Origin: Candidatus Aenigmatarchaeota archaeon
GTDB taxonomy: Archaea; Aenigmatarchaeota; Aenigmatarchaeia; GW2011-AR5
Reading direction: 5' to 3'
DNA: 64,000 nt
Assembly (NCBI GenBank): GCA_043799385.1
Contig: JAZDNV010000001.1
Location: 96,361-160,360 of the forward strand
Below are positions 2,788 to 33,141 of this stretch, piece after piece (position 1 is the stretch's first letter; the number at the start of each line of letters is the position of its first letter). The notes under the pieces are model-generated. The model ran no database searches. It was not told where the DNA came from and saw only the letters and a list, made by a program, of their open reading frames with translations. A program made the translations under genes and the position numbers.

Positions 2788-2809
2788 GCCTTGTTGGATA
2801 AGTCATCCA

Positions 2810-3082: not shown

Positions 3083-3182
3083 ATACCGATACCATGTTCA
3101 TTTTCGGCATCATCTTGATGATATACTTAGGCGCGCTGTTTTTCGGCCTCTTGTTTAAATCCTTGATAAGCATATAATTCTT

Positions 3183-8209: not shown

Positions 8210-10195
8210 TCAGTAATAATCATCTGAGTAATAATCACCATAACCACCATCATAACCGCTGTCATAGCAGTTATCGCAATAATAATCATTGCCATCATAC
8301 TGGTAACCGCCATAGTATTGGTAATAATTGTCGTTGTAGTAATCACCGCCAGTGTACTGGTAACCGTCATCATAGCAGTTATCGCAATAGTAGTCGCCGC
8401 CATAGTAAGGATAATTGTAGTCGTAGCAATTGCTGCCATAACATCCACCACCGCAGTTGTAGCAATTCGGGTACGTTCCGCACTGACCCCAAGATGAACA
8501 GCTATAACCGCCGCAGTTGTATCCCTGGCATCCACCGCACGAATAGCAGTTAGGATAAGTTCCGCACTGACCCCAGTCCGAACATCTGTAATTATTGCAT
8601 GGCGGGGTGCATGTATTGCAATAACCGTTGCTACAACCGTAGCTGCAAGTCTCTATCAATCTTTTTTCATCACGTTCTATGCATGTCGTTCCAGAGCATG
8701 AATAATCCCTGTACGTTTGATAGACATTGTTATTGAAGCAGTATTTCGAGTCTATGAAACCATCCTTTGCGTTGCAGTCTACGCAGTTAGGAGAAACCCC
8801 GCACGAAGTATCAGTTCCGCTGCATGTCTGGCAGGTTTGGCACTGGCCGTTGCTGCAGGTGCTGCTGCACGTCTCGACTAATTTATCGGTTTCACTATAT
8901 GTGCATCCGTTGCCTGAACAGTAATAATCCCGATACTTCTGATAGACGTTGTTACCAGAGCAGAATCGCGAGCCTGTATATCCGTCATTGTTATTACAGT
9001 TGTTGCAGTTCGGATAAACGCCGCACGAATTGTCCGTTCCGCTGCACGACTGACACGTTGTGCACTGGCTATTACAGTAACCGTTGCTACAACCATTGCT
9101 GCAGTATTCTATGGATTTTTCGCTTTCGCTATAAGTGCAGCTGTTGCCTGAGCAATAGTAGTCCCGGTATTTCTGATAAACATTATTTCCGCTGCAATAT
9201 CGCGAACCTACGTATCCGTCACTTCTATCGCAATCAGATGATGAGCATGTCTGGCACTGGCTGCCCGAGCAAGAGCCGCAGCCGCTTCCACAACCGCCCG
9301 TGCACGATGTGCCTTGGCATCCGCAATTGCTGCCTGTGCATGGATACTGGTAAGGGTAATAGTTGTATAAGCATGAGCCACTGGAGCAACTGTATAGACA
9401 ATCCTCAACTAATTCTTCCTGCGAGGTCCAGCTTGAATAGCATTTGCCATTACTGCATCCGCGGTCGAAATAATTCCTTGAGTGATAAACATCATTGTTC
9501 TTGCAGTAGTTGCTGCCCCACAGGTCATAGCTGCTTGAGCTGCAGCTCTGCTTGAATTTGTTTATGTCAGTATACGTGCAATACGATGCAATTGTTCCAG
9601 GATTCACACACTTGTATGTCCTGTATTTCTGGTACACGTCGTTGCCGGAGCACTGCGTTTCATCAATCCAGTCACTCTTGCCGCAATCAGAGTCAGTACT
9701 GCAACCAATACATTCGCCGTTGCTGCATCTTGCGCAACTTTTGCAATTATCCTTTAACGTTCTCGTCTGCGTTGTTTTTTCAAAGCAACGGCCGTATTCA
9801 CAAGAATAATCGATAAATTCCTGGTCCCTGCATATGCACCTGTTATTGCCGTCACAGCAAGGATAGCTCTTGACGTCTACCCATTTATCCTTTGCGTTGC
9901 AATCCTCGACAATTTTGTTTGATTCGCTGAAAACGCAGCTTCCGTCTCTGCGTTGGTAATCCCTGTAAAACTGGTAAACATTTTCACCTGAGCAGAATTT
10001 TTCTCCGACAAAACTATCCAATTTGTTGCAATCATCGCATGTGATGGCATTGCAGACGTTGAATATACCTGAAACGCAACTTGCATTTTCGCACGTCTTC
10101 AATACGAATGCAGTTGGCGCCTGCGTATAAATCACATAGGCTATGCCAACGAACAACAGAATAAACACTATTGCGACCTTTGCTGCGTATTCCAT
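8210..10195 (-). CDS. membrane-anchored secreted cysteine-rich modular repeat protein with Tyr/Asp/Gly-rich C-terminal tail
   Basis: N-terminal TM/signal (VAIVFILLFVGIAYVIY). At least 5-6 tandem about 55-aa modules with consensus DGY.GSRYCSGNNVYQKYRDYYCSGN.CTYSE..K..E.CS..CSNG.C, the first two more divergent. Duplicated SDWGQCGTYPNCY.CGG motif; terminal about 60 aa composed almost only of Y, D, G, N, C. Confidence 0.6.
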   Translation of the reverse strand: MEYAAKVAIVFILLFVGIAYVIYTQAPTAFVLKTCENASCVSGIFNVCNAITCDDCNKLDSFVGEKFCSGENVYQFYRDYQRRDGSCVFSESNKIVEDCNAKDKWVDVKSYPCCDGNNRCICRDQEFIDYSCEYGRCFEKTTQTRTLKDNCKSCARCSNGECIGCSTDSDCGKSDWIDETQCSGNDVYQKYRTYKCVNPGTIASYCTYTDINKFKQSCSSSSYDLWGSNYCKNNDVYHSRNYFDRGCSNGKCYSSWTSQEELVEDCLYSCSSGSCLYNYYPYQYPCTGSNCGCQGTSCTGGCGSGCGSCSGSQCQTCSSSDCDRSDGYVGSRYCSGNNVYQKYRDYYCSGNSCTYSESEKSIEYCSNGCSNGYCNSQCTTCQSCSGTDNSCGVYPNCNNCNNNDGYTGSRFCSGNNVYQKYRDYYCSGNGCTYSETDKLVETCSSTCSNGQCQTCQTCSGTDTSCGVSPNCVDCNAKDGFIDSKYCFNNNVYQTYRDYSCSGTTCIERDEKRLIETCSYGCSNGYCNTCTPPCNNYRCSDWGQCGTYPNCYSCGGCQGYNCGGYSCSSWGQCGTYPNCYNCGGGCYGSNCYDYNYPYYGGDYYCDNCYDDGYQYTGGDYYNDNYYQYYGGYQYDGNDYYCDNCYDSGYDGGYGDYYSDDYY

Positions 10196-12650: not shown

Positions 12651-12683
12651 CGAACCACTATTATTTATTTTGCAACACGAAGT

Positions 12684-13091
12684 TTATAAAAACCCCGCAC
12701 TGACTTTCTTATGCGGTTCGCGAGAGTAGATGTGCGGCGCCTTTTCTATAAGCTTGTCTGATTCCTCTTGCGTAACTAGCATTGCCGTTTCCAATTTTTC
12801 CACGTCACGTATGCCTTCATACGGTCTTGCTGCCCTGCTAGGAACCAGACAGTATACTATAACCTTATGGGTTTTATCAGGCAATTCATTGCCATTGCAG
12901 TCGAACGACATTGTATGTTGGCTACCGTCGTTTCTGTAAACAGCCATAACAGTGTTGCCTGTTGGGTATACGTCAATTGGGCATACTGCTCCAGGATGCC
13001 TTTCAAGCACCTTTCTTACAACCTTTTCGCGCACATCAAGTGCCATATTCATGATATCACCTCGTTTTTTATTGGATGAAATAAAAATCAA
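12684..13091 (-). CDS. hypothetical protein (about 120-135 aa)
   Basis: ORF with several Cys/His; real start may be the internal MNMALD; no family recognised. Confidence 0.35.
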   Translation of the reverse strand: MIFISSNKKRGDIMNMALDVREKVVRKVLERHPGAVCPIDVYPTGNTVMAVYRNDGSQHTMSFDCNGNELPDKTHKVIVYCLVPSRAARPYEGIRDVEKLETAMLVTQEESDKLIEKAPHIYSREPHKKVSAGFL

Positions 13092-13347
13092 TTTCGGAAT
13101 TAAAGGCAGTTTTTAATGCTTTCGGAGGGAGCAGGTGACTGAAACCGAAGAAAGCGTTTATTTCTGCCTCAACTATCAGGCATAGAAATAACTATAGGAA
13201 AAGCTAAACCAGGATTTGTTATTTACGTTAGCTTTCATTCAAATCTCCTTTCATACCCTTTAACACAAAAATTTAAATATCAATACTTAAGCGCATCATG
13301 AAATAGCAAGCTTTTTTACCTGACAGTTCAATTAATTCAAGATAGTT

Positions 13348-14592: not shown

Positions 14593-15438
14593 CTACATTC
14601 TCCAGAAATCCATATAAGGTTTTGCCGTATTATTGTCTATTTCTGCAATGATAAAATGTCTAGAAAAATCCAATTCCTTGCGAACTATTCTTAATTTCGG
14701 AAGTATCACTCCTACACCACCATCCGAGCCTTTAATAAAAACCGGTATCGCGCCATTATAGAATACGTATCCAACAACATCTCTATATTTATCATAACTA
14801 GTGCCATGCTCATTTTGTTTGCCGTGATTGACAACGAGAATATTCTCTATCGTATCGTTTCTGACCGTAGTAAATATATGTCTTCCGTTATTTGTAAGAC
14901 AGTCATACTCTCTTATGAAAACCACAGGTTCTAAAATTATACCGCTTTCGCGATCTACACCTAAATGCCTTACGACTATAATATCGTCCTTTCTGACATT
15001 TTCTATAATCTCCCTCTTTTGCCCGGCTAGCCCTCCTGAATAAAACGATGTCAAGTTGCCCGATCTAGTAGTGCCGTCTGAAGATAGAAAGTCAACCGAT
15101 TTTTTGTAACCACTGATACCTTTTACAACGCCCCTGAAGATAGAAGGATGACGGTCAAACTCTTCGTATGCAATCTTAGATAGCCATTCTTCATAAGGAT
15201 TCAATTTTGTTGCAGCTGTTATATGAACATCATCCGAAATTTCTTCAGTCTTGAGTGAAAAATAATTGCCGGAAGTTTTATGCTCAACCATTCCAGGTCC
15301 AGTATATGACGAAAGAAATTTTTGCAAGACTTGCTTTGTAGCGGTTTTTAGTTCGGGTATTTTCTGCCTTAGGTTGTCGTATGTTATCTGTTCGCCACGT
15401 TTATAACATTTGGATAAATCAATCACAGGTAATGACAT
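14593..15438 (-). CDS. hypothetical protein, possibly degenerate metallophosphoesterase-like
   Basis: 281 aa; weak VVNHG and VVRHLG motifs reminiscent of calcineurin-like phosphoesterases; divergent from rtcA. Confidence 0.35.
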   Translation of the reverse strand: MSLPVIDLSKCYKRGEQITYDNLRQKIPELKTATKQVLQKFLSSYTGPGMVEHKTSGNYFSLKTEEISDDVHITAATKLNPYEEWLSKIAYEEFDRHPSIFRGVVKGISGYKKSVDFLSSDGTTRSGNLTSFYSGGLAGQKREIIENVRKDDIIVVRHLGVDRESGIILEPVVFIREYDCLTNNGRHIFTTVRNDTIENILVVNHGKQNEHGTSYDKYRDVVGYVFYNGAIPVFIKGSDGGVGVILPKLRIVRKELDFSRHFIIAEIDNNTAKPYMDFWRM

Positions 15439-17710: not shown

Positions 17711-18502
17711 TTAAATGCTTTGAATTTCTCTGCCTATTATGTCATGCGCATTGACGGAAAAGAACGAGCCGTTGTTTCTCAAAACCAGCAAATTCCCTTT
17801 TGCTGCCACAACACGGCCAGAAATGCTTATACCATCGCAGACCGAGATGTTTTCCGGGTCAGACAAAACATTTTGCAGTCGATAGAACCGTCTCATGTCG
17901 TAAATCTCAGGTTTTATGAGGTCAAATTTTTTTTCCTTCAGGCTAACCAGTGCCTTTGTTATATTTTCGGTAGCTACGTTCGGGTTGCCAAATAATGTTT
18001 TGTGTTTTTCGCTGCCAAGTATCCTATCAGCGATTGTCAGGTTATTCTTTATCTTTTGCTCTACGCTCCTCGCTTCTCTACCATCACGGATGAACGCTAT
18101 CTTTGCACCGAAATCCGCGCCCTGTTCGACCAGACGCTCTAATATCCTGTGTTCATAGGATATACCAACCTTCAGCAACGAGTCAAAAGCCGCCAGATAG
18201 ATATAGTAATTGTTTTTTTCGCACTCGCTACGTTTTTTTGGGTTTATGCACTCGCCACTGCATCTTATGCACTGGAAGAAGTCGTCATTCACTCGGCAGT
18301 CATCGCAATTCCACCCATGCCTTATCTCCCTGTTGTCCGGGCACGGATGATGCTTGCCATCTTTAAAAAAACCAACGCAGAATTTTTTTCCAAGATTGAT
18401 TGAGACATTTTCGTCGAATAATCGCATCCTACCAAAGTCCTTGCCGTCCTTTAAATTAAAGAAAGGTTCCCAGTTTACCCATTTGTAGCCGGTTATTTGC
18501 AT
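17711..18502 (-). CDS. hypothetical protein with Cys cluster (putative zinc-binding)
   Basis: 263 aa; CPDNREIRHGWNCDDC...CIRCSGEC cluster; no family recognised. Confidence 0.4.
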   Translation of the reverse strand: MQITGYKWVNWEPFFNLKDGKDFGRMRLFDENVSINLGKKFCVGFFKDGKHHPCPDNREIRHGWNCDDCRVNDDFFQCIRCSGECINPKKRSECEKNNYYIYLAAFDSLLKVGISYEHRILERLVEQGADFGAKIAFIRDGREARSVEQKIKNNLTIADRILGSEKHKTLFGNPNVATENITKALVSLKEKKFDLIKPEIYDMRRFYRLQNVLSDPENISVCDGISISGRVVAAKGNLLVLRNNGSFFSVNAHDIIGREIQSI

Positions 18503-19092
18503 ATTCGGTCAAAAGCCATCGTCACGTTTGCTAAAGTTTTTTCATCCATCAAGTCGTTTTTTAGCATTGAAAAAAGGTTTTTTGTCATCATCTCGAATTC
18601 CTTTCTGTACCTGAATTTATATAAGGTTTCCCTGAAAAAATCAGAGGAATAGTTATCAATTCCGTGAAAGCTCAACCAAGGAAGACTCATACCAATGAAA
18701 TCATTGAGTTTTTCTATTCCCTTCCCGTGTTCTGAAAAGATTATGTAGTAATAATAGAACAGCTCGTCTGAGAATTTTTTTGCAATCTTACGGTTCACGA
18801 TTATATCTTCAATGAATTCAGGAACATCCATGAATTTTTTCAAGTTTGCTTTGAGCAGCATTCTCAGAATAATTATTTTTATCGCCTTTTCGTCACAGCT
18901 CTGCACGAACGGGTCTTTATAATCTATCGTGATGGCGGCGTCAAAATCCAAGATTTCTATTTTATTCGTATCTCCCACGGAAAAAACAAGATTTTCATAC
19001 GGGACATCGATGAATTGTATGATTCTGTCAAATAGTTTGAATACGGTTCTTGTCCTGTCATCGGTCTTTTCGTATTTTTTTACAACGTGCAT
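18493..19092 (-). CDS. hypothetical protein (199 aa)
   Basis: ORF overlapping start of previous gene (operon); no recognised motif. Confidence 0.35.
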   Translation of the reverse strand: MHVVKKYEKTDDRTRTVFKLFDRIIQFIDVPYENLVFSVGDTNKIEILDFDAAITIDYKDPFVQSCDEKAIKIIILRMLLKANLKKFMDVPEFIEDIIVNRKIAKKFSDELFYYYYIIFSEHGKGIEKLNDFIGMSLPWLSFHGIDNYSSDFFRETLYKFRYRKEFEMMTKNLFSMLKNDLMDEKTLANVTMAFDRICK

Positions 19093-19114: not shown

Positions 19115-19960
19115 TTAAATTACACCTTTCCACTCCTTTATCGCTTTTTCATAGCGTTCGATATTGCCTATATCGAACCATTGGCCGCTGAACGGGTAAC
19201 CAAAAAGCTTATTCCTCTTGGCGATCTTCGGAAAAACGTCTTTTTCCAGAGACGAGAAGCCGTCCGGGATCATTTTTATGACATCCGGCTCAAGTATGTA
19301 AAATCCCGCGTTGATGAGGTTTGATTCGATTTTCTTCGGTTTTTCCATGAATTCCAGTATGTTAGTTCCGTCTAATTTCACGACGCCGTAATTTCCAGGC
19401 TCTTCAACCGTTGTCAGCGCAAGCGTCGCTAAAGCATCATTATTTTTATGTAGGCGGAACATCTCTTCAATGTTTATATTCTTTAATTCATCGCCATTCG
19501 AAACTATAAACGGTCCATTCAGGTGGTTTTTCGCAAGCTTTATCGGCCCGGCCGTGCCCAATGGTTCGTCTTCTTCAACGTAAGTTATTTTAACGCCGAA
19601 CTTCAAGCCATCGCCGAAATGGTTCCTTATCTTTTCTTTCATGTGGCCTACAGAAAGAATAATGTCGGTTATGCCATACTTCTTCAGCAGGTCGAAGAGA
19701 TGCTCAAGCATGGCCTTACCCTTTATCGGCATCAACGCCTTTGGTATTTCATATGTTATCGGCCTCAACCTTGTTCCTTTACCACCGCAGAGTATTAGCG
19801 CCTTTCTCGGGCAGTTGTCGCCAAAAGCCCGCAATAGAAGCAGCTCAAGCGCATGACTCCTGTTCTTTATTGTGTGGCCATCGACAATTCTGTCGATCTT
19901 CTCAACAAATTCCTTGTCAACCGTTACGCTTATCCGCTCTTTCATAAAATTATCATACAT
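19115..19960 (-). CDS. sugar-1-phosphate nucleotidyltransferase with N-terminal ribbon-helix-helix-like domain
   Basis: N-terminal about 45 aa (RISVTVDKEFVEKIDRIVDGHTIKNRSHALELLLLRAF) with CopG/RHH-like beta-alpha-alpha pattern. Followed by nucleotidyltransferase G-loop ALILCGGKGTRLRPIT and RmlA/ManC-like body. Confidence 0.65.
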   Translation of the reverse strand: MYDNFMKERISVTVDKEFVEKIDRIVDGHTIKNRSHALELLLLRAFGDNCPRKALILCGGKGTRLRPITYEIPKALMPIKGKAMLEHLFDLLKKYGITDIILSVGHMKEKIRNHFGDGLKFGVKITYVEEDEPLGTAGPIKLAKNHLNGPFIVSNGDELKNINIEEMFRLHKNNDALATLALTTVEEPGNYGVVKLDGTNILEFMEKPKKIESNLINAGFYILEPDVIKMIPDGFSSLEKDVFPKIAKRNKLFGYPFSGQWFDIGNIERYEKAIKEWKGVI

Positions 19961-19970
19961 CGTAATACTT

Positions 19971-20795
19971 TTAAATACTCCCCCACTCTTTTATCGCCTT
20001 TTCGTAGCCTTCATTGCTTCCGACGTCGAATATCTTTCCGTCGTGAACGAATCCGGACAACTGGTTTTCTCGTGCCAGCTTCGGGAATAACGTTTCTTCT
20101 ATCAAACCTTTACCGTTGTGGACAAGATTTAAAACATCAGGTTCAAGTATATAGAAGCCCGCGTTTATCAGGCTTGGTCCACTGGTCCTCGGATTTTCTA
20201 TGAATTTTGTTATATGATTGCCCTTCATCGCAGCAACGCCACCCCTAGGATTTTCCGTGAGAACAAGCAGAATCGTAGCAAGCGTTGATTGTTTTTTATG
20301 AAAATTTAGTATTTCGTAAATATCGGGATTCATCAGCGTATCAACGTTCATTGCAATGAAAGTGTCTTTTATATAATCCCTCGCCAGGTAAAGCGGATAG
20401 GCGGTGCCCATTGGTTTTTCCTCAGTGAGATAAGTTATGTTAACGCCAAATTTGCTACCATTACCGAAGTACTCCTTCACCTTTTCGTGCATGCTTCCCA
20501 CTGATAGGAGAATATTCCTTATATCATACCTTCTGAGCATGCTTATCTGGTATTCAAGTATCGGCCGACCGTGAATAGTTATCATCGGCTTCGGTATCTC
20601 ATAGGTCATAGGTCTTAGCCTTGCACCCGTTCCACCGGCAAGAATAAGTGCAGTGTTGATATCGGTTTTGCTCATCGCCCTCAACAAAAGGCTTTCGACT
20701 GCATGGCTCCTGCTCTTTATGTTCCTCTTGTCTATCATCCTGTCTAGCTTCTTCAGTATATCGTTCTTTATCGTTATCGTCACTCTTTCGACCAT
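19971..20795 (-). CDS. sugar-1-phosphate nucleotidyltransferase paralog with N-terminal ribbon-helix-helix-like domain
   Basis: Paralog of the downstream gene: VTITIKNDILKKLDRMIDKRNIKSRSHAVESLLLRAM then ALILAGGTGARLRPMT G-loop; only 10 nt separate the two genes. Confidence 0.65.
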   Translation of the reverse strand: MVERVTITIKNDILKKLDRMIDKRNIKSRSHAVESLLLRAMSKTDINTALILAGGTGARLRPMTYEIPKPMITIHGRPILEYQISMLRRYDIRNILLSVGSMHEKVKEYFGNGSKFGVNITYLTEEKPMGTAYPLYLARDYIKDTFIAMNVDTLMNPDIYEILNFHKKQSTLATILLVLTENPRGGVAAMKGNHITKFIENPRTSGPSLINAGFYILEPDVLNLVHNGKGLIEETLFPKLARENQLSGFVHDGKIFDVGSNEGYEKAIKEWGSI

Positions 20796-20894: not shown

Positions 20895-21968
20895 ATGATA
20901 ATAAGAAGCCGGGCACCGGTGAGGATATCTTTCGGAGGCGGCGGGACAGACGTGCCGCCGTACTGCGATGAGCATGGCGGCTGCGTTCTATCAGCAACTA
21001 TAAACAAATACTCCTATGCGTCGCTGGAATCCAGGAACGACCAGGAAATCCACATAGAATCAGGCGATTTCCTGAAAAAACTGAGGTTCGGAAGCATAGA
21101 CGAGATGGCATACGACAATGAGTTGGATTTATTGAAGGCTGCGATAAAAAACCTAAACACCACACGAATGGGATTGAACATATTTCTGAGGAGCAGCATC
21201 CCGCCGAAGTCCGGCCTAGGCGGCTCTGCATCATGCTTCGTTGCGCTAATCGGGTTGTTCAACCATATAAGGGCTGATAAGATGACAAATTACGAAATAG
21301 CGGAATTAGCGCACAGGCTGGAGCGCGAGGAATTAAAGATAGCAGGCGGCAAGCAGGACCAGTATGCTGCTGTGTTCGGAGGGATAAACTTTATTGAATT
21401 CGGTGGCAATTGGGTCAGGGTTAATCCTATAACAATGAAGAAGGACCACCTGCTGGAACTGGAGAAGCATCTGGTTCTTGTTTATGTCGGCGACCGGCCA
21501 AAAGAGGACGTTACCAGAGAATACATAACAGGAAAAACGAAGACAGATGACATAATCGGAGACCAGGTCAAATCGGTTCTAGAAAAGAAAGAATCGGTTA
21601 TAGAGGCGCTTGACAGGACCAAAGAAATTGCGTTGGATATGAGGCGTGCGTTCATGATAGGAGATTTGATTGGCTTTGGTGAATTATTGCACAAGGCCTG
21701 GGAGGAGAAGAAGAAGTTTTCAAACATGATATCGAATAGATACATAGATGATCTGTATGCGTTGGCTAGAAAACACGGTGCAATAGGCGGGAAGATTACC
21801 GGTGCAGGTGGCGGCGGTTTCATGTTGTTCTTCTGCGAGCCGAACAAGGAGCAGATCGTTGCAGAGCAGCTTGAAAAGGCCGGCGCAAGGCCGACAAGTT
21901 TCGCGTTTGATTTTGATGGCTTGCAGACATGGGAAGTGGGTTATCTCACCGGTAGGGTGTACAGATGA
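20895..21968 (+). CDS. hddA: GHMP sugar kinase, probable D-glycero-alpha-D-manno-heptose 7-phosphate kinase
   Basis: GHMP motif PPKSGLGGSASCFVAL; N-terminus APVRISFGGGGTD typical of HddA/HldE-kinase-like GHMP kinases; directly upstream of gmhA/gmhB/hddC. Confidence 0.65.
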   Translation: MIIRSRAPVRISFGGGGTDVPPYCDEHGGCVLSATINKYSYASLESRNDQEIHIESGDFLKKLRFGSIDEMAYDNELDLLKAAIKNLNTTRMGLNIFLRSSIPPKSGLGGSASCFVALIGLFNHIRADKMTNYEIAELAHRLEREELKIAGGKQDQYAAVFGGINFIEFGGNWVRVNPITMKKDHLLELEKHLVLVYVGDRPKEDVTREYITGKTKTDDIIGDQVKSVLEKKESVIEALDRTKEIALDMRRAFMIGDLIGFGELLHKAWEEKKKFSNMISNRYIDDLYALARKHGAIGGKITGAGGGGFMLFFCEPNKEQIVAEQLEKAGARPTSFAFDFDGLQTWEVGYLTGRVYR

Positions 21969-22001: not shown

Positions 22002-22595
22002 TTGAAAATGAAAGACAAAATAAAAGAAGCAATCGATGAGCACAGCAAATTAATAGATGAGATTGTAAGCGATTCTGAACTAATGAAAAAGATAGAAATC
22101 ATAACAAAAAGAATAATTGAATCTTACAAGATGGGCGGCAAGCTCGTTATTTTCGGCAACGGCGGCTCAGCAAGCGACGCGCAGCATATCGTCGCGGAGT
22201 TGATAAACAAGTTCAAGCTGGACAGACCGATGCTCAACGCACTGGCGCTGAACGTCAATACGTCTGTCATAACCGCTATTGCAAACGACTCTTCATACGA
22301 TGATGTTTTTTCAAAACAGATAGAATATCTGGTTGATTATAAGGACGTTGTTATCGGTATAAGCACCAGCGGAAAGTCAAGGAGCGTAATAAAGGCAATG
22401 CAGACGGCGAGAAATAAGGGCGCGCTTACAGTCGGCTTTACAGGAAGGACAGGCGGACCAATGAAGGATTATGTTGACATATTATTGAACATGCCATCCG
22501 ATTCCACGCCGAGAATACAGGAGGCGCACATACTGGCTGGGCACATAATCTGTGAGCTGATAGAGCAGGAATTATTCGGTAAGAAATATGAATAG
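22002..22595 (+). CDS. gmhA: sedoheptulose-7-phosphate isomerase (SIS domain)
   Basis: GKLVIFGNGGSASDAQHIVAEL phosphosugar-binding SIS signature, 197 aa. Confidence 0.8.
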   Translation: MKMKDKIKEAIDEHSKLIDEIVSDSELMKKIEIITKRIIESYKMGGKLVIFGNGGSASDAQHIVAELINKFKLDRPMLNALALNVNTSVITAIANDSSYDDVFSKQIEYLVDYKDVVIGISTSGKSRSVIKAMQTARNKGALTVGFTGRTGGPMKDYVDILLNMPSDSTPRIQEAHILAGHIICELIEQELFGKKYE

Positions 22596-23163
22596 AGCTG
22601 TATTCCTAGACAGGGACGGCGTAATTATCCGTCAGATGGAGGTAGTTTGCAAGCCAGAGCAGCTAAAAATACTGAAGGATTCAGGCAAGGCCATAAAGTT
22701 ACTGAACAATCTTGGGTTTCGTGTTGTGGTTGTCACGAATCAGCCGCAGGTTGCCAAGAACCAATGCACGGAAAGAGATGTCAGAAAAGTCAACGAATCG
22801 CTAAGGGCGAAGCTAATGAAGAGCGGTGCAAAGGTGGATGCTATATATTTCTGCCCTCATCATCCCGAAAGGCAGCATAGAGACATAATAGAAAAATGCA
22901 GAAAGTATAGGATAGCGTGTGAGTGCAGGAAACCCGATATCGGGATGCTTTTAAAGGCAAAGAAGAAATTTAACATTGATATACATTCATCTTTTATTGT
23001 TGGCGACCGCACAGTCGATGTACAGACAGGAAAGAATGCTGGTTGCAAGACAATATTAGTGAAAACAGGCTATGCCGGCAGCGACAAGAAATATGATGCG
23101 AAACCGGATTTCATATGCAGAGATTTGTATCGTGCAGCAAAGCTTATTGAGGGATTCGTATGA
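22588..23163 (+). CDS. gmhB: D,D-heptose 1,7-bisphosphate phosphatase (HAD-IIIA)
   Basis: HAD motif I FLDRDGVI, motif VVVTNQ, GDR motif (IVGDRTVD), Cys pattern CxHxxxxxC typical of GmhB zinc site; 191 aa. Confidence 0.75.
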   Translation: MNRAVFLDRDGVIIRQMEVVCKPEQLKILKDSGKAIKLLNNLGFRVVVVTNQPQVAKNQCTERDVRKVNESLRAKLMKSGAKVDAIYFCPHHPERQHRDIIEKCRKYRIACECRKPDIGMLLKAKKKFNIDIHSSFIVGDRTVDVQTGKNAGCKTILVKTGYAGSDKKYDAKPDFICRDLYRAAKLIEGFV

Positions 23164-24644
23164 AGGCAGTTATCATGGCCGGCGGGGTTGGAGAACGTCT
23201 GAGGCCGTTAACAGACGAAATGCCGAAGCCTATGCTGAAAATTGCAGGAAAACCCATACTTCAACACCAGATAGAGCTGCTGAAACGTTATGGAATAGAT
23301 GAAATAGTCATATGTGGTTCGCATCTTTTTGAAAAGATTAAGGAGTACTTTGGCGACGGCTCAGCTTTCGATGTAAGGATAGAATACTTGAGGGATGAAC
23401 AACTGGGAACAGGCGGCGCGCTGAAGAATGCCGAGAAATTTTTAGACGAAACATTTATTCTTCTCTATGGCGATACGATGATGAGGATGAATCTAAAACG
23501 ATTGATAGATTTCCACAAAAAAAGCAACGCAACGGTAACAATAACGCTGCATGAAACTGACCATCCGCATGACAGCGATTTGGTAAAAATAGATGAAAAT
23601 GGCATGGTCGTCCGCATATTCAACAAGCCGAATACGGGTATGCCTTCAAGACTAGGTAAATCATCGGTCTTTATCGTCGAACCTTCTGTGCTCAGTGATA
23701 TACCTGAAACAAGAAACGATTTTGAAAAGGATGTAATATCAAAATTAGTACCGTCAGGAAAGGTTTACGGATACTGCACAAGTGAATTCATAAAAGACAT
23801 CGGAACAACCGATAGGTACAAAAAGGTCAATGAGATATTCAGTAAGGAAAAAGAATTGAAAGTTATTGCTAAGGAGATAAGAAAACACATAATTAAAATG
23901 ACAACTTGTGCCAAATCTGGTCATCCGGGCGGCTCGCTATCAGCAGCTGATATAATAACGGCATTATATTTCTATAAAATGAGATATCGTCCGGATGAGC
24001 CCAACTGGAACGAGCGCGATAGATTCATTCTATCAAAAGGACACGCATGCCCAGTTCTGTATGCGGCTCTTGCAATTGCCGGATTTTTTCTGGCTGATGA
24101 ATTGATGACATCAAGAAAAATTAATTCAAGGATACAGGGTCACCCGTCAATGATTCTTCCGGGAATAGATGCATGTTCGGGTTCTCTCGGCCAGGGATTA
24201 TCTGTTGCGAACGGCATCGCTTTATCAGCTAGGATTGATAAAAAAGACTACAACGTGTATATTTTACTTGGCGACGGTGAGTTGCAGGAAGGCCAGATAT
24301 GGGAGGCTGCGATGACATCGTCCCAATACAAAATTAATAACCTTACCGCTATAGTTGATCGTAATGGATTACAGATTGATGGCAATACTGAAGACGTAAA
24401 GGGGTTGAATCCGTTGGCAGAAAAGTGGAGATCATTTGGTTGGCACGTTATTGAGATAGACGGTCATGACTTTCCACAGCTGTTGTACGCATTGGATATG
24501 AAGAGCGATAGACCAAAGGTAATAATTGCAAACACAATTAAGGGCAAGGGTGTCTGCTCAATGGAAAATAATATAGAATTCCATGGAAAGGTTTTGTGTG
24601 ATGAAGAATGCCAAAGAGCGATGAAAGAATTAGAATCGCAATAG
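23160..24644 (+). CDS. fusion protein: N-terminal heptose-1-phosphate nucleotidyltransferase (HddC-like) + C-terminal transketolase N-terminal (TPP-binding) half
   Basis: Residues about 1-230: G-loop IMAGGVGERLRPLT, NTP-transferase body. Residues about 240-494: transketolase motifs SGHPGGSLSAADIITALYF and GSLGQGLSVANG...LLGDGELQEGQIWEA. Single uninterrupted 494-aa ORF. Confidence 0.75.
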   Translation: MKAVIMAGGVGERLRPLTDEMPKPMLKIAGKPILQHQIELLKRYGIDEIVICGSHLFEKIKEYFGDGSAFDVRIEYLRDEQLGTGGALKNAEKFLDETFILLYGDTMMRMNLKRLIDFHKKSNATVTITLHETDHPHDSDLVKIDENGMVVRIFNKPNTGMPSRLGKSSVFIVEPSVLSDIPETRNDFEKDVISKLVPSGKVYGYCTSEFIKDIGTTDRYKKVNEIFSKEKELKVIAKEIRKHIIKMTTCAKSGHPGGSLSAADIITALYFYKMRYRPDEPNWNERDRFILSKGHACPVLYAALAIAGFFLADELMTSRKINSRIQGHPSMILPGIDACSGSLGQGLSVANGIALSARIDKKDYNVYILLGDGELQEGQIWEAAMTSSQYKINNLTAIVDRNGLQIDGNTEDVKGLNPLAEKWRSFGWHVIEIDGHDFPQLLYALDMKSDRPKVIIANTIKGKGVCSMENNIEFHGKVLCDEECQRAMKELESQ

Positions 24645-25069
24645 GATGCGACCATAGGGGATACGACTTGAAGGAGTCGTTAAAGGGTTATCTAGCTGGT
24701 AATGGCCATGAGGTAAAGGATTTCGGTACACACAGCAAAGATAGCGTTGATTACCCAGTTTTTGCAAAAGAGGTTGCAATGGCCATTGCAACCGGTGAAT
24801 ACAATCGCGGCATTCTCATATGCGGCAGCGGCATAGGCATGCAAATAGCTGCCGACAAGATAAAGAAGATACGGGCTGCGAACTGCCGTGATGAAGATGA
24901 TGCGTACAGGAGCAGGGCGCACAATGATGCGAACGTGCTGACACTAGGCGCAGATAAAATTACTGGTGATTTGGCAAAGAGGATTGTTGATAAGTGGCTG
25001 ACAACTGATTTCGAGGCAGGAAGGCACCAGAGAAGAGTAGACATGATAGAGGAGATGGAAAATGGTTAA
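24608..25069 (+). CDS. rpiB: ribose-5-phosphate isomerase B
   Basis: IAIGCDHRGYDLKESL, ILICGSGIGM motifs of RpiB/LacAB; 153 aa. Confidence 0.8.
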   Translation: MPKSDERIRIAIGCDHRGYDLKESLKGYLAGNGHEVKDFGTHSKDSVDYPVFAKEVAMAIATGEYNRGILICGSGIGMQIAADKIKKIRAANCRDEDDAYRSRAHNDANVLTLGADKITGDLAKRIVDKWLTTDFEAGRHQRRVDMIEEMENG

Positions 25070-25718
25070 GGTTGGAGCATCGTTGTTGGCAAAACAAGAG
25101 GAGATGGAAAAAGAATCATTAGCCAAGAAAATAACCAAACTGGAAAAGGCAGGAATAGATATGATACACTGGGACGTCATGGACGGTGTGTATAACCCTA
25201 TTAATACCATGGCTTTCCAGGGTCCTGATGTGATAAAGGAACTGAGGAAAATAACAGGGTTGCCGTTTGTCGCCCACTTGATGATAGCCAACCCGATAGA
25301 AAAAATACAGGCGTTCCATGAAGCAGGATGCGATATTATCGTTTTTCATTACGAAGCGTGCAAGAAAGACGATGTAAGCAAGACGATAGACGAGATAAGG
25401 TCATACAAAAGAATACCAGGCATTGCCATAGAGCCTGATACTCCAGTTGGGGTAATCTATCCGTATCTTGATCTATTAGATTACGTGCTCATAATGACCG
25501 TAAAAACGGGTTATGCTGGTCAGAAATTTATTGATGAGACCAATAAGATACGCAATCTTGCGTTAAAAAAAGGCAGTTTCGAGATAGATGTAGACGGTGG
25601 AATTAACGACATTACAGGGAAATTATGCATAGGGGCAGGCGCAACTGCCCTGTCAGCTGCCAGCTACATATCAGGCAGCGATGATTACAGCGTTGCAATA
25701 AAAAAATTGCGTGGTTAA
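25062..25718 (+). CDS. rpe: ribulose-phosphate 3-epimerase
   Basis: Rpe signature around HWDVMDG, TIM-barrel length 218 aa, DVDGGIN metal/phosphate-binding region. Confidence 0.8.
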   Translation: MVKVGASLLAKQEEMEKESLAKKITKLEKAGIDMIHWDVMDGVYNPINTMAFQGPDVIKELRKITGLPFVAHLMIANPIEKIQAFHEAGCDIIVFHYEACKKDDVSKTIDEIRSYKRIPGIAIEPDTPVGVIYPYLDLLDYVLIMTVKTGYAGQKFIDETNKIRNLALKKGSFEIDVDGGINDITGKLCIGAGATALSAASYISGSDDYSVAIKKLRG

Positions 25719-26634
25719 AATGAAATCAACACGTGATGCGTTCGGTGAGGCACTTGCAGAATTTGGCAGCGATGAGCGAATAGTCGTTCTTGACGCTGAC
25801 CTATCCAAATCAACTAAGACATGCATGTTTGCAGAAAAATTCCCAGACAGATTTTTTAACGTCGGTGTAGCTGAGCAGGATCTATTCGGAACTGCAGCAG
25901 GATTTGCTCTAACAGGAAAAATACCGTTTGCAAGCACTTTCGCCATCTTTGTTTGCAGGGCATGGGAGCAGATTAGAAACGCAATTGCATATCCAAACCT
26001 TAACGTGAGAATTGCTGCAACACATAGCGGCATAAGCTGCGGTGAGGACGGGGTTTCACATCATGCTACAGAGGATATTGCATTGATGCGTGCAATACCG
26101 AACATGGCAGTAATCGTTCCAGCGGATGCAATAGAAACAAAAAAAGCAATAAAGGCAACGCTAGATTGGCGTGGCCCTGTCTACATAAGGATGAACAGGC
26201 CGAAGAGCCCGTTAATATTCAATGATGATTATGACTATGAAATCGGCAACGCCAGCGTAATCAAAGACGGCAGCGATGTTTCAATAATAGCATGTGGCAT
26301 CATGGTCAGCGAGGCGGTGAAGGCATCAGAGATACTCAATAAAAACGGCATATCAGCAGAGGTTGTAAACATGCACACGATAAAACCGCTTGACGCAGAA
26401 ACAATTTTAAAGACAGGAAAAAAGACAGGGAGAATAGTTACGTGCGAAGACCACGGTATCATTGGCGGCCTTGGCTCTGCGGTCGCAGAAGTCATCGCAG
26501 GAAGCAATATCAAACTGGAGAGAATCGGCGTTAAAGGCTTTTGCGAATCCGGGAGCCACGAAGAACTTTTTATGAAATACGGATTGAATGCAGAAAGTAT
26601 TGCAAACGCTATTAAAAATCAGGTGATTAAATGA
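25711..26634 (+). CDS. transketolase C-terminal half (pyrimidine-binding and C-terminal domains)
   Basis: Split archaeal-type transketolase subunit B: FNVGVAEQDLFGTAAGFALTGKIPF, IRMNRP motifs; 307 aa. Confidence 0.8.
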   Translation: MVKMKSTRDAFGEALAEFGSDERIVVLDADLSKSTKTCMFAEKFPDRFFNVGVAEQDLFGTAAGFALTGKIPFASTFAIFVCRAWEQIRNAIAYPNLNVRIAATHSGISCGEDGVSHHATEDIALMRAIPNMAVIVPADAIETKKAIKATLDWRGPVYIRMNRPKSPLIFNDDYDYEIGNASVIKDGSDVSIIACGIMVSEAVKASEILNKNGISAEVVNMHTIKPLDAETILKTGKKTGRIVTCEDHGIIGGLGSAVAEVIAGSNIKLERIGVKGFCESGSHEELFMKYGLNAESIANAIKNQVIK

Positions 26635-27401
26635 AGATTTTTATTGACACATCAAAGCTAAACGAGATAAAAAAGATAAACGAACTTGGGGTATTGGACG
26701 GAGTTACGACCAACCCGTCTTTGATAAAACAAGCGGTCGACGATTTGAAGAGCAAAGGAGAAAATATTGATTTAGAGGATTACATAAAGGAAATCTGCAA
26801 AGCCTCAGGAAAGAATAAACCTGTCAGCTTAGAGGTAATAAGCACTGATGTAGCGTCGATGGTAAGCGAGGCAAAACTATTGCACAAGAAGTTCAATTTT
26901 GCAAACAACGTTGTAATAAAAATACCGCTAACTGCAGATGGATTAAAGGCGATTAATGAATTGAATAAATCCGGTATAAAAACGAATGCAACACTGATAA
27001 TGACAGTCGAGCAGGCATTGCTCGCAGCAAAGGCCGGAGCAACTTACGTATCACCATTCGCCGGAAGAATAGACGATTATCTACGGAGCGGTACGGAATA
27101 CAAAAAATCCGACTACTTTCCAGCGCATGGAACAGGAAAAGATGATAACGGAATAGTCAGCGGTGTTGACCTTGTGAGAAAGATCACAGATATATTCGAA
27201 ATTTTCAAAATAGATACAGAGATAATAGCGGCAAGCATTCGGAATGCAAGACAAGTTCGTGAAGTCGCATTAGCAGGCGCGCATATAGCGACTATACCGT
27301 TTTCTGTAATCAACGAGATGCTAAAACATTCAAAGACAGATGAAGGAATAATAAAATTCTCAGAGGATACGATACCAGAATACAGGAAAATATTCGATTA
27401 G
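26631..27401 (+). CDS. tal: transaldolase (short, fructose-6-phosphate aldolase-like type)
   Basis: MKIFIDTS...GVLDGVTTNPSLI signature, Schiff-base Lys region VVIKIP; 256 aa. Confidence 0.8.
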   Translation: MKIFIDTSKLNEIKKINELGVLDGVTTNPSLIKQAVDDLKSKGENIDLEDYIKEICKASGKNKPVSLEVISTDVASMVSEAKLLHKKFNFANNVVIKIPLTADGLKAINELNKSGIKTNATLIMTVEQALLAAKAGATYVSPFAGRIDDYLRSGTEYKKSDYFPAHGTGKDDNGIVSGVDLVRKITDIFEIFKIDTEIIAASIRNARQVREVALAGAHIATIPFSVINEMLKHSKTDEGIIKFSEDTIPEYRKIFD

Positions 27402-29574: not shown

Positions 29575-30846
29575 ATGAAGATATCTATAATAGGCTCTGG
29601 TTATGTCGGCCTGTCCACAGGACTAGGACTTGCGTCACTCGGTTATGAAATCATATGCGTTGATGTAGACAGAGGCAAAGTCGATTCGATAAATAACGGA
29701 AAACTGCCGATTTATGAGGACGGGATGCAGGAAATACTCAACAAAGCTCTTAAGAAAAAGACATTCAAAGCTACAACAGACTTTGCGTATGCTATAGAAA
29801 ATTCAGAAGTAAGCTTTGTAGCAGTTGGCACGCCATTCAAGGACGGTCTTTATTTGAAATATGTTATGGACGCTGTAACCGATATATCAAAAGCATTGAA
29901 AAGCAAGAAAGGATACCATCTAGTTGTCATGAAGTCAACGGTTCTGCCAGGAACGACAGAGAGCATCATACCAATACTTGAAAAATCCTCGAAAAAGCGC
30001 GTTGGAAAAGATATTGGTCTGTGCATGAATCCTGAATTCCTGAGAGAAGGCAAAGCCCTTGATGATTTCCTGAAGCCAGACAGGATTGTAATAGGCGAAT
30101 TTGACAAGAAATCAGGAGATGCTCTGGAAAAACTTTACAAGGGCGTCAATGCGCCTGTTTTCAGAACCAACCTTAAGACGGCGGAGATGATAAAATATGC
30201 GGCGAATACATTCCTTGCATCTAAAATCTCTCTTATAAATGAAATAGGCAATATCTGCAAAAAGCTAGGTATAGATACGTATGATGTTGCAAAAGGAATC
30301 GGTTATGACAAGAGAATCTCGCCGCAATTTCTGGAATCAGGTATAGGTTTTGGCGGTTCATGCTTCAAAAAGGATTTGTCTGCACTGGCAAAAAAAGCAA
30401 AGAGTCTCGGAGTCGATACGAGAATAATAGATGCCACGCTCTGCGTAAATGAGAACCAGCCGCTAAAAATAACTGAGTTTTTGAAGGACGTCAAGAACAA
30501 GAAAGTGACGATACTCGGCCTTGCCTTCAAGCCGGGAACAGACGATATACGCGAATCGCCTGCGATAAGGATAATAAGTGAGCTTTTGAGGAAAGGAGCG
30601 TGCGTTTCTGCGTATGACCCGAAGGCAATGGACAACGTTAAGAGGGTATTCCCGAACATAACCTATTGTCGCAGCGCAAAAGAGGCGCTGGAAAACGCTG
30701 ATGCCTGCGTAATTTTGACTGAATGGGAGGAGTTTAAAAAACTTTCCGAGAAGGAATTTTCAGTGATGAAAAATAAAGTGATAGTAGAAGGCAGGAAAAC
30801 GTTGAATCCTAAAATAGTTAAAAAATTTGATGGTGTCTGCTGGTGA
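29575..30846 (+). CDS. nucleotide-sugar 6-dehydrogenase (UDP-glucose/GDP-mannose/UDP-ManNAc dehydrogenase family)
   Basis: N-terminal NAD fold MKISIIGSGYVGLSTGL, catalytic Cys region GFGGSCFKKD; 423 aa. Confidence 0.8.
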   Translation: MKISIIGSGYVGLSTGLGLASLGYEIICVDVDRGKVDSINNGKLPIYEDGMQEILNKALKKKTFKATTDFAYAIENSEVSFVAVGTPFKDGLYLKYVMDAVTDISKALKSKKGYHLVVMKSTVLPGTTESIIPILEKSSKKRVGKDIGLCMNPEFLREGKALDDFLKPDRIVIGEFDKKSGDALEKLYKGVNAPVFRTNLKTAEMIKYAANTFLASKISLINEIGNICKKLGIDTYDVAKGIGYDKRISPQFLESGIGFGGSCFKKDLSALAKKAKSLGVDTRIIDATLCVNENQPLKITEFLKDVKNKKVTILGLAFKPGTDDIRESPAIRIISELLRKGACVSAYDPKAMDNVKRVFPNITYCRSAKEALENADACVILTEWEEFKKLSEKEFSVMKNKVIVEGRKTLNPKIVKKFDGVCW

Positions 30847-30850
30847 TGAT

Positions 30851-31669
30851 ATGAAAGCGATAATACTTGCTGCCGGACGCGGAACAAGGCTGCGCCCATT
30901 AACATACGGCATACCTAAACCGCTTCTTCCGGTAAAAGGAACGCCGATGATAGACTGGGTCATACGAAGCATTTCCAGTGAAAAGATAGAAGAGATAATT
31001 GTTGGCACGTCAGGAACAATTGGAGAAAACATGGAAGAGCGGGTGCTATCGCATATTCACGGCATCTGCATCGATTCCTATCTTAAGAACCAGACTTATG
31101 ATTGCAAAATAAGAACGGTCCCTACTTTACAGCGCGAGACAGGCGGTGATTTGAGGTATATTCTTGAAGAAATCAACATGAAGAAAGGAAAGATAATAGT
31201 TGTTTATGGCGACAATCTCACGTCATTCAACATTGACAAACTTCTCGATTATCATGAAAAATGCAAAAACGAGCTTGGCATCGCAGGCACAGTAGTCTTG
31301 TTCGAATCACCTGAGAGCGATGTGAACCGCTTCGGGATAGCGAAATTAAAAAACGTGAAAGGCTTTGATTTGGTAACATCTTTCATAGAAAAGCCGTCGT
31401 TGCAAGAAGCACCGTCACGATACGCGAGTGCCGGTTATTACATTCTTGAAGTGGACGAGGTATTCGATATGCTTCCGCATGAAAAGGTAAAGGTTGAGCA
31501 TTCAGTATTCCCAGTCTTGGCAAGCCAGAACAAACTTGCTGGTTATATAACAAAGCTTCCTTACTGGATTGATATAAGCACCTTGGAGGCATACATTACG
31601 GCGAACAAGATGGCTCATGACGGTCTTATAATCCCACCATCGCTTCCGAATAAAGGAAACAACATATGA
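30851..31669 (+). CDS. sugar-1-phosphate nucleotidyltransferase
   Basis: G-loop AIILAAGRGTRLRPLT; probable start at MKAIIL (30851) rather than 30827. Confidence 0.7.
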   Translation: MKAIILAAGRGTRLRPLTYGIPKPLLPVKGTPMIDWVIRSISSEKIEEIIVGTSGTIGENMEERVLSHIHGICIDSYLKNQTYDCKIRTVPTLQRETGGDLRYILEEINMKKGKIIVVYGDNLTSFNIDKLLDYHEKCKNELGIAGTVVLFESPESDVNRFGIAKLKNVKGFDLVTSFIEKPSLQEAPSRYASAGYYILEVDEVFDMLPHEKVKVEHSVFPVLASQNKLAGYITKLPYWIDISTLEAYITANKMAHDGLIIPPSLPNKGNNI

Positions 31670-33141
31670 TGATTATGAATATCAAGAAAATAGTTTTACT
31701 TTTATTGGCTATTAATGCAGTTCTAGTCCTCATCCCTGCAATTGTTTTTAATCTGCCGATTGTTCAGACAGACGGTGCGTCTCATTACGTTTATGCCAAG
31801 GTTTATTCAGAAACATTTTCACTGGATTCTGAAAATCCCGAATACAACCGCATGGGTTCTGTCGAAAAAAAGCTTTCTGACTACCCGCCATTTGTTACGA
31901 TAGTTTTTGGCTCGATTATAAAAATGTTCGGCAATGACATATTCCTTATAAACGGTGGTTTCGGTCTTGCATTCTTTCTGCTTGCATCAATATTCATGTA
32001 TATCTTCATAAAAGATATCACAAAAAACAACACTGTTGCGATTATAGGCCTTGCTTTCTTCATTCTGAATATAAGAGCTTATTACACGCTCTTCACAGGA
32101 ATATACCCAGCGTTCGTCTCCTTCTGCCTTTCCATACCGGCGCTGTATTTTTCATATAAATTCTTTTTGTCAGGTAATAATAGGAATCTTGTGTTGTCGC
32201 TGCTTTTCACCTGTATGACTGTCTTTGCTTATACTATACAGGGTCTTTATCTAATATTCCTAGAAATCATGTTATGGTTCGGGATAAAGCTTGAGGAAAA
32301 ACTTTCTGTGCACTTCCCGAAAATAAATGCTAGGATAAAAAGAATTTCATTGAGCGACTTCAAGAATGCGATTTATCTGCTAATACCCACTGCGTTATTC
32401 TTATTTTTTGTTATAATCTCATTCACACTGAAGGGCACCACAAGAGAGACGTGGTTAAGCGGATGGTTTTCAGGACTGATGAGCACCTGCACCGGTTACC
32501 AATGTGTCTGGAAGCACTTCTTTATAGTTGAAGGGTTGATTGCACTATTTGCGATATTCGGTTCAATCTACCTGTTCTACAAAAAAGACTGGAAGATAAT
32601 CACGCTTCTTTTAGGTGGTTTTTTGATAGTGATATCAGGAAGCATTTTTATCGAGGGTGAACCGACAATACTGGTTTACATCTATCGTTTCTATACAACA
32701 TTTTCAGCGCTGCTGGTGATACCGGCAAGCGTTTTCATATATAAAATCATTTCAATGAAAGAGGTCAGAAATATAGGAATAGTGTTTCTGGCTCTATGCA
32801 TTTTTATTCAGTTGGCGATATTAGGATACTTCTATTTGAATATCGGACCTGCGATAACGCAGGGTGAGTACGATGCGGCTTCATTTCTTTCTGGTCATAC
32901 GAAATCGAATATACTTTACGTAAACAATGAGGTTGATGAAGGGACGTTCAGGTCGTTCAAGTGGGTTGTTGTCTTTGCCAAATCAGAAAAATACAGCGTA
33001 AGCGAGAGCGTAGGCAATTTGACCGGATTTGACTACGTCTTCGTTCAGGATAAGGATAAACTGAGTGCTGATGAAAAAAACAAGCTAGGCAATAACATAG
33101 CATTCAATAGCGGCAACGCACAGGTTTACAAAATAGCCTGA
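31666..33141 (+). CDS. polytopic membrane protein, possible GT-C-type glycosyltransferase or glycan polymerase
   Basis: 491 aa, more than 10 predicted TM helices, large C-terminal extracytoplasmic domain; embedded in glycan cluster; no specific family motif recognised. Confidence 0.4.
   Translation: MMIMNIKKIVLLLLAINAVLVLIPAIVFNLPIVQTDGASHYVYAKVYSETFSLDSENPEYNRMGSVEKKLSDYPPFVTIVFGSIIKMFGNDIFLINGGFGLAFFLLASIFMYIFIKDITKNNTVAIIGLAFFILNIRAYYTLFTGIYPAFVSFCLSIPALYFSYKFFLSGNNRNLVLSLLFTCMTVFAYTIQGLYLIFLEIMLWFGIKLEEKLSVHFPKINARIKRISLSDFKNAIYLLIPTALFLFFVIISFTLKGTTRETWLSGWFSGLMSTCTGYQCVWKHFFIVEGLIALFAIFGSIYLFYKKDWKIITLLLGGFLIVISGSIFIEGEPTILVYIYRFYTTFSALLVIPASVFIYKIISMKEVRNIGIVFLALCIFIQLAILGYFYLNIGPAITQGEYDAASFLSGHTKSNILYVNNEVDEGTFRSFKWVVVFAKSEKYSVSESVGNLTGFDYVFVQDKDKLSADEKNKLGNNIAFNSGNAQVYKIA

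Follow-up and report, generated by a model that had tools for sequence, protein, structure and literature searches.

The DNA analysed here, a 64,000-nucleotide (nt) stretch of contig JAZDNV010000001.1 from a metagenome-assembled genome (MAG) of Candidatus Aenigmatarchaeota (DPANN archaea), hereafter called the window, contains a single gene in which a nucleotidyltransferase (NTase) is joined in frame to the thiamine pyrophosphate (TPP)-binding half of a transketolase (TK). We consider it likely that this is a genuine bifunctional DPANN gene, combining a sugar-1-phosphate NTase with the TPP-binding alpha subunit of a split alpha2beta2 TK, that it arose by loss of a stop codon where heptose genes meet pentose-phosphate pathway (PPP) genes, and that it serves to tether the two enzymes. 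The gene occupies one open reading frame (ORF) of 494 amino acids without an internal stop, in which Pfam recognises PF00483 NTP_transferase at residues 2-226 (E 4e-40) and PF00456 Transketolase_N (TK_N) at residues 236-489 (E 6e-53). An earlier sequence-only reading had proposed such an in-frame fusion, and it is borne out by the presence of both Pfam domains in the same frame; the motifs cited in its favour (IMAGGVGERLRPLT, SGHPGGSLSAADIITALYF and LLGDGELQEGQIWEA) are all found in this ORF. The parts of the gene are listed below.

23160-24644, + strand: fusion gene of the NTase and the TK PP-domain (alpha) subunit, 494 residues (single ORF, Pfam, AlphaFold2).
23160-23843, + strand: NTase half, residues 1-228, HddC-like by context (G-loop GGVGERLRPLT; PDB and NCBIfam matches).
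23853-24641, + strand: TK N-terminal (TPP/PP-domain) half, residues 232-494 (match to 6yak, Foldseek, ligand conservation).
23808-23912, + strand: junction, predicted as one continuous alpha-helix, residues 217-251 (DSSP on the AlphaFold2 model).
23848-23852, + strand: run of five A exactly at the fusion point (simulated insertion of one A; comparison with the unfused loci L038 and L041).

The alpha chain of the split TK 6yak and the TK half share 54% sequence identity (E 4.5e-93), and the AlphaFold2 model of the TK half superimposes on that chain in Foldseek with a root mean square deviation of 1.0 Å (TMt 0.91). Models of full-length TK align to the fusion ORF over positions 13-281 of 627 only (345 bits, cutoff 488); the ORF stops after the PP domain and is without the Pyr and C domains and the approximately 70-residue linker of a full-length single-chain TK. 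Four histidines of the PP domain, H255, H295, H328 and H475, do not vary among the four fused proteins in the alignment (that of the window and the metagenomic homologues P0001, P0002 and P0004); they stand for the donor/acceptor-binding histidines numbered H26, H66, H100 and H261 in E. coli TktA. The H66/H100 numbering of the substrate-binding histidines of the E. coli enzyme was taken from PMC7661550. That paper also lists the residues that bind TPP and Ca2+ in ChTK-N, the alpha subunit of the split TK of Carboxydothermus hydrogenoformans, namely K68, H70, G117, L119, D148, G149, E150, N178, L180, I182 and K240. Counting through the alignment of the fusion with 6yak, these correspond to K293, H295, G341, L343, D372, G373, E374, N402, L404, I406 and K461, so that 11 of 11 are identical. 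Absence of the catalytic His and TPP-binding residues, which would have spoken against a functional TK half, was thus looked for, and the residues are present.

The remainder of the TK is encoded, as the sequence-only reading had noted, by a separate gene two genes downstream:

25711-26634, + strand: TK Pyr and C-terminal (beta) subunit, partner of the fused alpha half (PF02779 Transket_pyr and PF02780 Transketolase_C; 6yaj).

The best PDB match of its product is the beta chain of the split TK, 6yaj (E 6.5e-99), and the cofactor-activating Glu is kept in the motif GVAEQD. Split TK is an alpha2beta2 tetramer (PMC7661550), and since the TPP and metal ligands are the same as in ChTK, the fused alpha half and this beta subunit are expected to assemble in the same way.

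The architecture is not confined to the window. NTase-TK_N fusions were found in five other metagenomic proteins. P0001 (JGI metagenome) and P0002 (SRA assembly), respectively 64% and 61% identical to the window protein, are both GmhB-NTase-TK_N triple fusions and are followed by an RpiB-Rpe fusion and then by the TK C-terminal subunit gene (TK-C); transaldolase (TAL) follows too on the P0002 contig, and the P0001 contig ends inside TK-C. P0003 is a fragment of the same kind. P0004, 42% identical to the window protein, is present in identical form in two independent SRA assemblies, with TK-C, TAL, GmhA and GmhB downstream of it and a GHMP kinase upstream. The fifth, P0128 (L005 1068-2627), is an NTase-TK-like fusion, divergent in sequence and rich in GC, with TK-C next in line. 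Between the window clade, P0004 and P0128 the NTase halves share only 25-33% identity, which points to separate fusion events. In addition, P0145 (L006/L007) joins an RfaE-domain-II heptose-1-phosphate adenylyltransferase to TK_N (TIGR02199, 188.3 bits, cutoff 181.5), and its gene is immediately preceded by GmhB, with TK-C and TAL on the other side; it is a convergent counterpart of the window fusion with a non-homologous NTase fold.

P0128 has a Pro/Ala-rich linker and altered TPP motifs (GGH... in place of SGHPG, GDA in place of GDG), and it adjoins an SDR epimerase/dehydratase; it may be a different thiamine diphosphate (ThDP)-dependent sugar-nucleotide enzyme. If the same were true in the window, the TK-like pair would be a ThDP-dependent modifier of nucleotide sugars, transferring a two-carbon unit onto an NDP-keto-sugar delivered by the fused NTase. 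The divergent TK half of P0128 and its position beside an SDR gene rather than PPP genes are what speak for this idea, but the window TK half retains all the cofactor ligands and donor-binding histidines of the characterised ChTK-N, at the level of identity given above, and the flanking RpiB, Rpe and TAL genes only make sense with a classical TK. We therefore regard a nucleotide-sugar modifier in the window as very improbable.

The fusion is the fourth in a tightly packed series of eight genes that all run in one direction, in the order HddA-like kinase, GmhA, GmhB, fusion, RpiB, Rpe, TK-C and TAL. Besides the fusion and TK-C these are:

20895-21968, + strand: HddA-like GHMP kinase (heptose-7-phosphate 1-kinase, alpha route; best NCBIfam model NF049969 HddA, E 1.8e-76, 257.8 bits against a cutoff of 600).
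22002-22595, + strand: GmhA, sedoheptulose-7-phosphate isomerase (best NCBIfam models NF010546, E 6e-55, and TIGR00441, E 2e-52, both just under cutoff).
22588-23163, + strand: GmhB-like HAD-IIIA heptose-1,7-bisphosphate phosphatase (NF006506, 158.3 bits against a cutoff of 178; TIGR01656 passed).
24608-25069, + strand: RpiB, ribose-5-phosphate isomerase B (TIGR01120, 177 bits, above the cutoff of 138.65).
25062-25718, + strand: Rpe, ribulose-phosphate 3-epimerase (NF004076, 174.2 bits, above the cutoff of 165).
26631-27401, + strand: transaldolase/FSA-family enzyme (Pfam TAL_FSA, E 5e-61; TIGR00875, 224 bits against a cutoff of 246).

The GmhB stop and the ATG of the fusion overlap by 4 nt. 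Read from its only ATG, the RpiB ORF overlaps the 3' end of the fusion by 37 nt (24608-24644), and since its Pfam match starts at residue 10 the true start may be non-canonical.

The NTase half has kept its G-loop, its catalytic Lys and the two Asp residues that bind Mg, and G8, G9, G11, R13, R15, K23, D105 and D213 do not vary across the four fused homologues in the alignment. It is best read as a heptose-1-phosphate nucleotidyltransferase because its gene comes directly after GmhA/GmhB and the HddA-type kinase, the neighbours expected of the GmhA-HddA-GmhB-HddC route described in PMC10680097. The closest solved relatives in the PDB are GDP-mannose pyrophosphorylases (E 1e-28) and Yersinia HddC (5xhw/6jq8; E 2e-24). 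Several observations weigh against so specific an assignment. The HddC equivalog model NF049965 scores 104.8 bits, under its cutoff of 300, and the best NCBIfam match is a mannose-1-phosphate guanylyltransferase with 148.8 bits, which is also under its own cutoff. Three more NTase paralogues lie nearby (19115-20795 and 30827-31669), so that the enzyme acting on heptose-1-phosphate may be another of these. Given that the HddC score is under cutoff and the mannose-1-phosphate model scores higher, the specificity for GDP and for heptose follows from context only. The sequence-only reading had assigned the last step of the GDP-heptose pathway to this domain; the operon context agrees with it, and its specificity is not established by the model scores.

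The fusion might accordingly be real while its NTase half acts on mannose-1-phosphate or glucose-1-phosphate for the same glycan genes, or serves TK as a regulatory domain that senses nucleotide sugars. The model scores speak for this, as do the several NTase paralogues in or near the operon both in the window and in the syntenic contigs L040-42, and the rigid helical connector of the predicted structure (see below) could pass on a conformational change. The catalytic residues, however, are invariant, and the ties to GmhB are close, extending from the 4-nt overlap in the window to covalent GmhB fusions in P0001, P0002, L040-42 and several GmhB-NTase proteins of approximately 400 residues. A bona fide heptose adenylyltransferase domain also takes the same position in P0145. 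On balance we think a different sugar or a regulatory role unlikely.

The junction between the two halves can be located precisely. The tail KKVNEIFSKE resembles the tails of stand-alone NTases such as P0273 (RYKKIDEIFGKS) and the head that follows, ELKVIAKEIRKHIIKM, resembles those of stand-alone TK_N proteins such as P0005; homology to NTase tails extends to ...IFSKE and homology to TK_N heads begins at ELKVIAKEIRKH, with the run of five A exactly between the two. The AlphaFold2 model of the fusion protein has a pLDDT of 95.4 and a pTM of 0.92 with an alignment of 78 sequences; only three other fused sequences are among them, so that the orientation of the domains relative to each other may be over-confident. 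In this model the C-terminal helix of the NTase continues without interruption or flexible linker into the N-terminal helix of TK_N (DSSP, residues 217-251). The connector is 47 residues long in P0001, P0002 and P0003 despite approximately 30% divergence, and a structure search found no solved chain spanning both halves. Just past the fusion point an in-frame TTG at 23856 (residue 233) is preceded by AAGGA, and this codon may be what is left of the start of an ancestral TK_N gene, or may allow free TK_N to be initiated internally.

Unfused relatives of the gene exist, and one of them is its nearest. P0271 on contig L038, the closest relative of the NTase half (69% identity), has the gene order of the window with NTase and TK_N unfused: the NTase terminates at TGA, and TK_N begins in the +1 frame with an overlap of 11 nt (ATGAAAAATGA). 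In a second syntenic lineage, L040-42, a GmhB-NTase and TK_N are likewise unfused, with an 8-nt overlap (ATGCTTAA); the TK_N protein of this lineage is present on 7 contigs, of which 3 were read, one of these from an NCBI MAG. L039, from an Aenigmarchaeota MAG, encodes the same eight functions unfused and in a different order.

These relatives bring up the question of an assembly or sequencing artefact, in which two overlapping genes, arranged as in L038 and L041, would have been merged by a one-base deletion in the A-run at 23848-23852. Apart from the unfused state at the homologous spot in L038 and L040-42, the case against a real fusion consists of the position of the junction exactly on five A, the outcome of a simulation, in which one extra A split the frame into a 237-residue NTase with the end ...SKEKRIESYC* and a TK_N that begins at an ATG with MRYSVRKKELKV, and the fact that exact look-ups and peptide scans of GTDB and JGI yielded no second assembly of the same species. 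Set against this, the 61 long ORFs of the window (94% of its length) hold 421 homopolymer runs of at least 5 bases with no gene visibly broken, which puts a rough upper bound of approximately 0.7% on the error per run. In-frame fusions occur in five further proteins from independent samples, one of them identical in two SRA assemblies, and the in-frame junction is predicted as one unbroken helix of high confidence. An artefact thus seems to us highly unlikely.

In the NTase tree the window groups with the unfused L038, and P0001 and P0002 group with GmhB-NTase proteins, among them P0234, which ends just past the NTase tail and is not joined to TK_N, and P0287, a truncated fragment. A rough neighbour-joining tree of the TK halves left the position of the window unresolved, and the NTase-half tree and the identities were used instead. 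Because the window pairs with an unfused locus and P0001/P0002 with GmhB-NTase proteins, and because the overlaps measure 8-11 nt, the fused state has arisen or disappeared at least twice through changes of one base in the stop/start overlap. In operons ordered by pathway this overlap falls between the final heptose gene and the first gene of the PPP. The fusion probably originated when the stop was lost from a translationally coupled gene pair with such an overlap, for which one single-base insertion or deletion suffices, and this has occurred repeatedly.

The stop context in L038 is AAA-TGA-C, and the overlaps of the unfused relatives lie out of frame in A-rich stretches (L038 4704-4744; L041 8001-8056). 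The A-runs of L038, L041 and the window were also considered as sites of programmed frameshifting or transcriptional slippage, an idea that was set aside because they are only 4-5 bases long and ordinary overlaps of 8-11 nt suffice to account for the unfused loci; the overlaps in L038 and L041 most likely reflect ordinary translational coupling.

The extent of the recurrence was followed by several searches. Among 78 split-TK loci examined, 12 have heptose genes, and the other 66 have TK_N with or without an adjacent TK-C and no heptose gene; on this sample the PPP-heptose cassette appears to be a specialty of this group. No exact copy of the window fusion protein was found in the public protein collection searched, and an exact look-up of the window GmhB protein likewise found nothing. 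Peptide-pattern scans of GTDB genomes and JGI metagenomes returned unfused TK_N loci only and no closer relative; such scans match exact words, so that other fusions are possible. A search of 1.84 billion representatives was swamped by TK_N-only proteins, since clustering at 50% hides fused members, and no count of fusions was taken from it; a search with the NTase half alone omitted the homologous P0001, P0002 and P0004, which is a limit of the word index. The literature was searched in full text for an NTase-TK fusion, for split TK with heptose genes and for TK in gmhA clusters, and none of these searches turned up a description; the sole source name on a fused protein is 'transketolase'. 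The suggestion that the architecture is novel therefore holds as far as the literature is concerned, but the fusion is not unique to the window genome, it recurs in at least four lineages in metagenomes and the nearest relatives are unfused. We conclude that the fusion is real, that it is rare and recurrent, and that it has apparently not been described before. Its novelty lies in the architecture and in the logic of the operon; the pathway and the two enzyme families are familiar, and no new enzyme chemistry is involved.

From its intact active sites the fusion protein is predicted to have both enzymatic activities, and its gene sits at the boundary of two co-transcribed modules, a heptose module of HddA-like kinase, GmhA, GmhB and NTase, and a non-oxidative pentose-phosphate module of TK-N, RpiB, Rpe, TK-C and TAL. 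The TK half together with RpiB, Rpe, TK-C and TAL is a complete non-oxidative PPP set, by which fructose-6-phosphate and triose phosphate can in principle be converted to sedoheptulose-7-phosphate, and the enzymes of the operon could jointly lead from hexose phosphate to nucleoside diphosphate (NDP)-heptose. The two modules would thus form a self-contained route from fructose-6-phosphate and triose phosphate through sedoheptulose-7-phosphate to NDP-heptose, and the product would supply the glycosylation genes that surround the operon.

Within this scheme the fusion would enforce 1:1 co-production of NTase and TK alpha subunit, and two NTase domains would be rigidly tethered to the TK tetramer, each via one continuous helix. 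The sequence-only reading had proposed that the fusion physically couples precursor supply with heptose activation. Tethering and co-expression are what the sequence supports, and tethering may be of benefit to the cell; the channelling of a shared intermediate is another matter. Direct channelling between the fused domains is unlikely, since one of them would catalyse the first step of the route and the other the last, with the three enzymes GmhA, HddA and GmhB in between. A larger complex beyond the fused pair is possible, though unsupported. A more far-reaching proposal, which we offer as tentative and rather doubtful, is that the NTase-TK_N, GmhB-NTase-TK_N and RpiB-Rpe fusions mark a 'metabolon' leading from hexose phosphate to NDP-heptose on a TK alpha2beta2 core, with the bacterial-type TK and TAL of these DPANN archaea acquired and kept as a supply of heptose for surface glycans and not as a central PPP. 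DPANN archaea are reported to have gained TK/TAL and exopolysaccharide (EPS) genes from Bacteria (PMC8407392), and if this proposal were true these lateral acquisitions would be one event; as a hypothesis, the two may be linked.

Gene fusions are among the strongest signs of functional linkage that can be read from sequence. Here an enzyme of central metabolism has been joined repeatedly to the final enzyme of a glycan-precursor pathway, with two unrelated NTase folds, and for that reason the non-oxidative PPP genes of these small-genome archaea are suggested to serve the production of cell-surface heptose, and perhaps arrived for it. DPANN archaea live attached to hosts, and the cell surface is central to this way of life. 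With its seven or eight genes the operon is a compact set for the production of NDP-heptose from common sugar phosphates, and the fusion is a natural case in which to ask whether tethering of non-consecutive enzymes alters the flux through a pathway.

The operon is embedded in a large glycosylation island. Besides GT4 and GT2 transferases, a UDP-glucose dehydrogenase, epimerases and dehydratases, the island encodes at least four B12-binding radical SAM enzymes (39186-40610, 41714-43123, 50866-52308 and 61380-62762), which is unusual for a glycan cluster; these enzymes may methylate or otherwise modify sugars or lipids. Two of the NTase paralogues are transcribed divergently from the operon:

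19115-20795, - strand: two tandem ribbon-helix-helix (RHH)-NTP_transferase paralogues (Pfam/NCBIfam; same arrangement in L038, L039 and L040-42).

Each of the two (19115-19960 and 19971-20795, both - strand) has an N-terminal extension of approximately 50 residues before the sugar-1-phosphate NTase; that of 19971-20795 scores as a ribbon-helix-helix (CopG-type) domain, and an NTase that carries such a DNA-binding domain may be enzyme and regulator in one. The window also encodes a RadB-like protein and a SerRS that is 100% identical to an NCBI protein from a Candidatus Aenigmatarchaeota MAG. Four sizeable ORFs are without a Pfam match (8210-10195, 661 residues; 31666-33141, 491 residues; 14593-15438, 281 residues; 18493-19092, 199 residues), the last of which is kept beside DUF2797 in L040-42. 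Rfam and tRNA scans over the whole window found nothing, and two regions of approximately 690 bases each (2788-3468 and 12651-13347) contain no ORF of at least 150 residues and no tRNA or Rfam match.

The fusion can be compared with four kinds of known system. The closest is the split-gene TK of C. hydrogenoformans, ChTK-N/ChTK-C (6YAK/6YAJ; PMC7661550), to which both halves of the window TK correspond (alpha half 54% identity, beta half E 6.5e-99) with identical TPP and metal ligands. Unlike ChTK-N, the window alpha chain bears a 230-residue NTase at its N-terminus, and RpiB and Rpe stand between its alpha and beta genes, which are thus not adjacent. With HddC the window NTase shares the NTP_transferase fold, its size and the neighbouring GmhA, GHMP-type HddA kinase and GmhB genes, but it remains below the HddC equivalog cutoff (104.8 bits against 300), is fused to a TK subunit and has a nucleotide and sugar specificity that is predicted only. 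HldE (RfaE), the heptose-7-phosphate kinase/heptose-1-phosphate adenylyltransferase of the ADP-heptose route, is a precedent for the fusion of non-consecutive steps in nucleotide-heptose synthesis, and its adenylyltransferase domain is the one that occurs fused to TK_N in P0145. The domains of HldE, however, are of the PfkB and cytidylyltransferase-like kinds, neither of which was found in the window fusion protein by Pfam or NCBIfam, and HldE joins two enzymes of the heptose pathway whereas the window fusion joins a heptose enzyme to one of central metabolism. Finally, fusions tend to form among the TK alpha subunit and the neighbours in its operon, as seen in ribokinase-like PfkB-TK_N, Rpe-TK_N and RpiB-Rpe proteins (the proteins and loci concerned being L008 (P0121), P0130 and P0127; P0156, P0184 and P0244; and L003/L004/L040 for RpiB-Rpe). 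Like the window gene these are merged neighbours of a sugar-phosphate operon, and they indicate that the TK alpha subunit accepts large N-terminal additions; whereas they stay within pentose metabolism, the NTase-TK_N fusion links the PPP to the synthesis of nucleotide sugars, the precursors of glycans.

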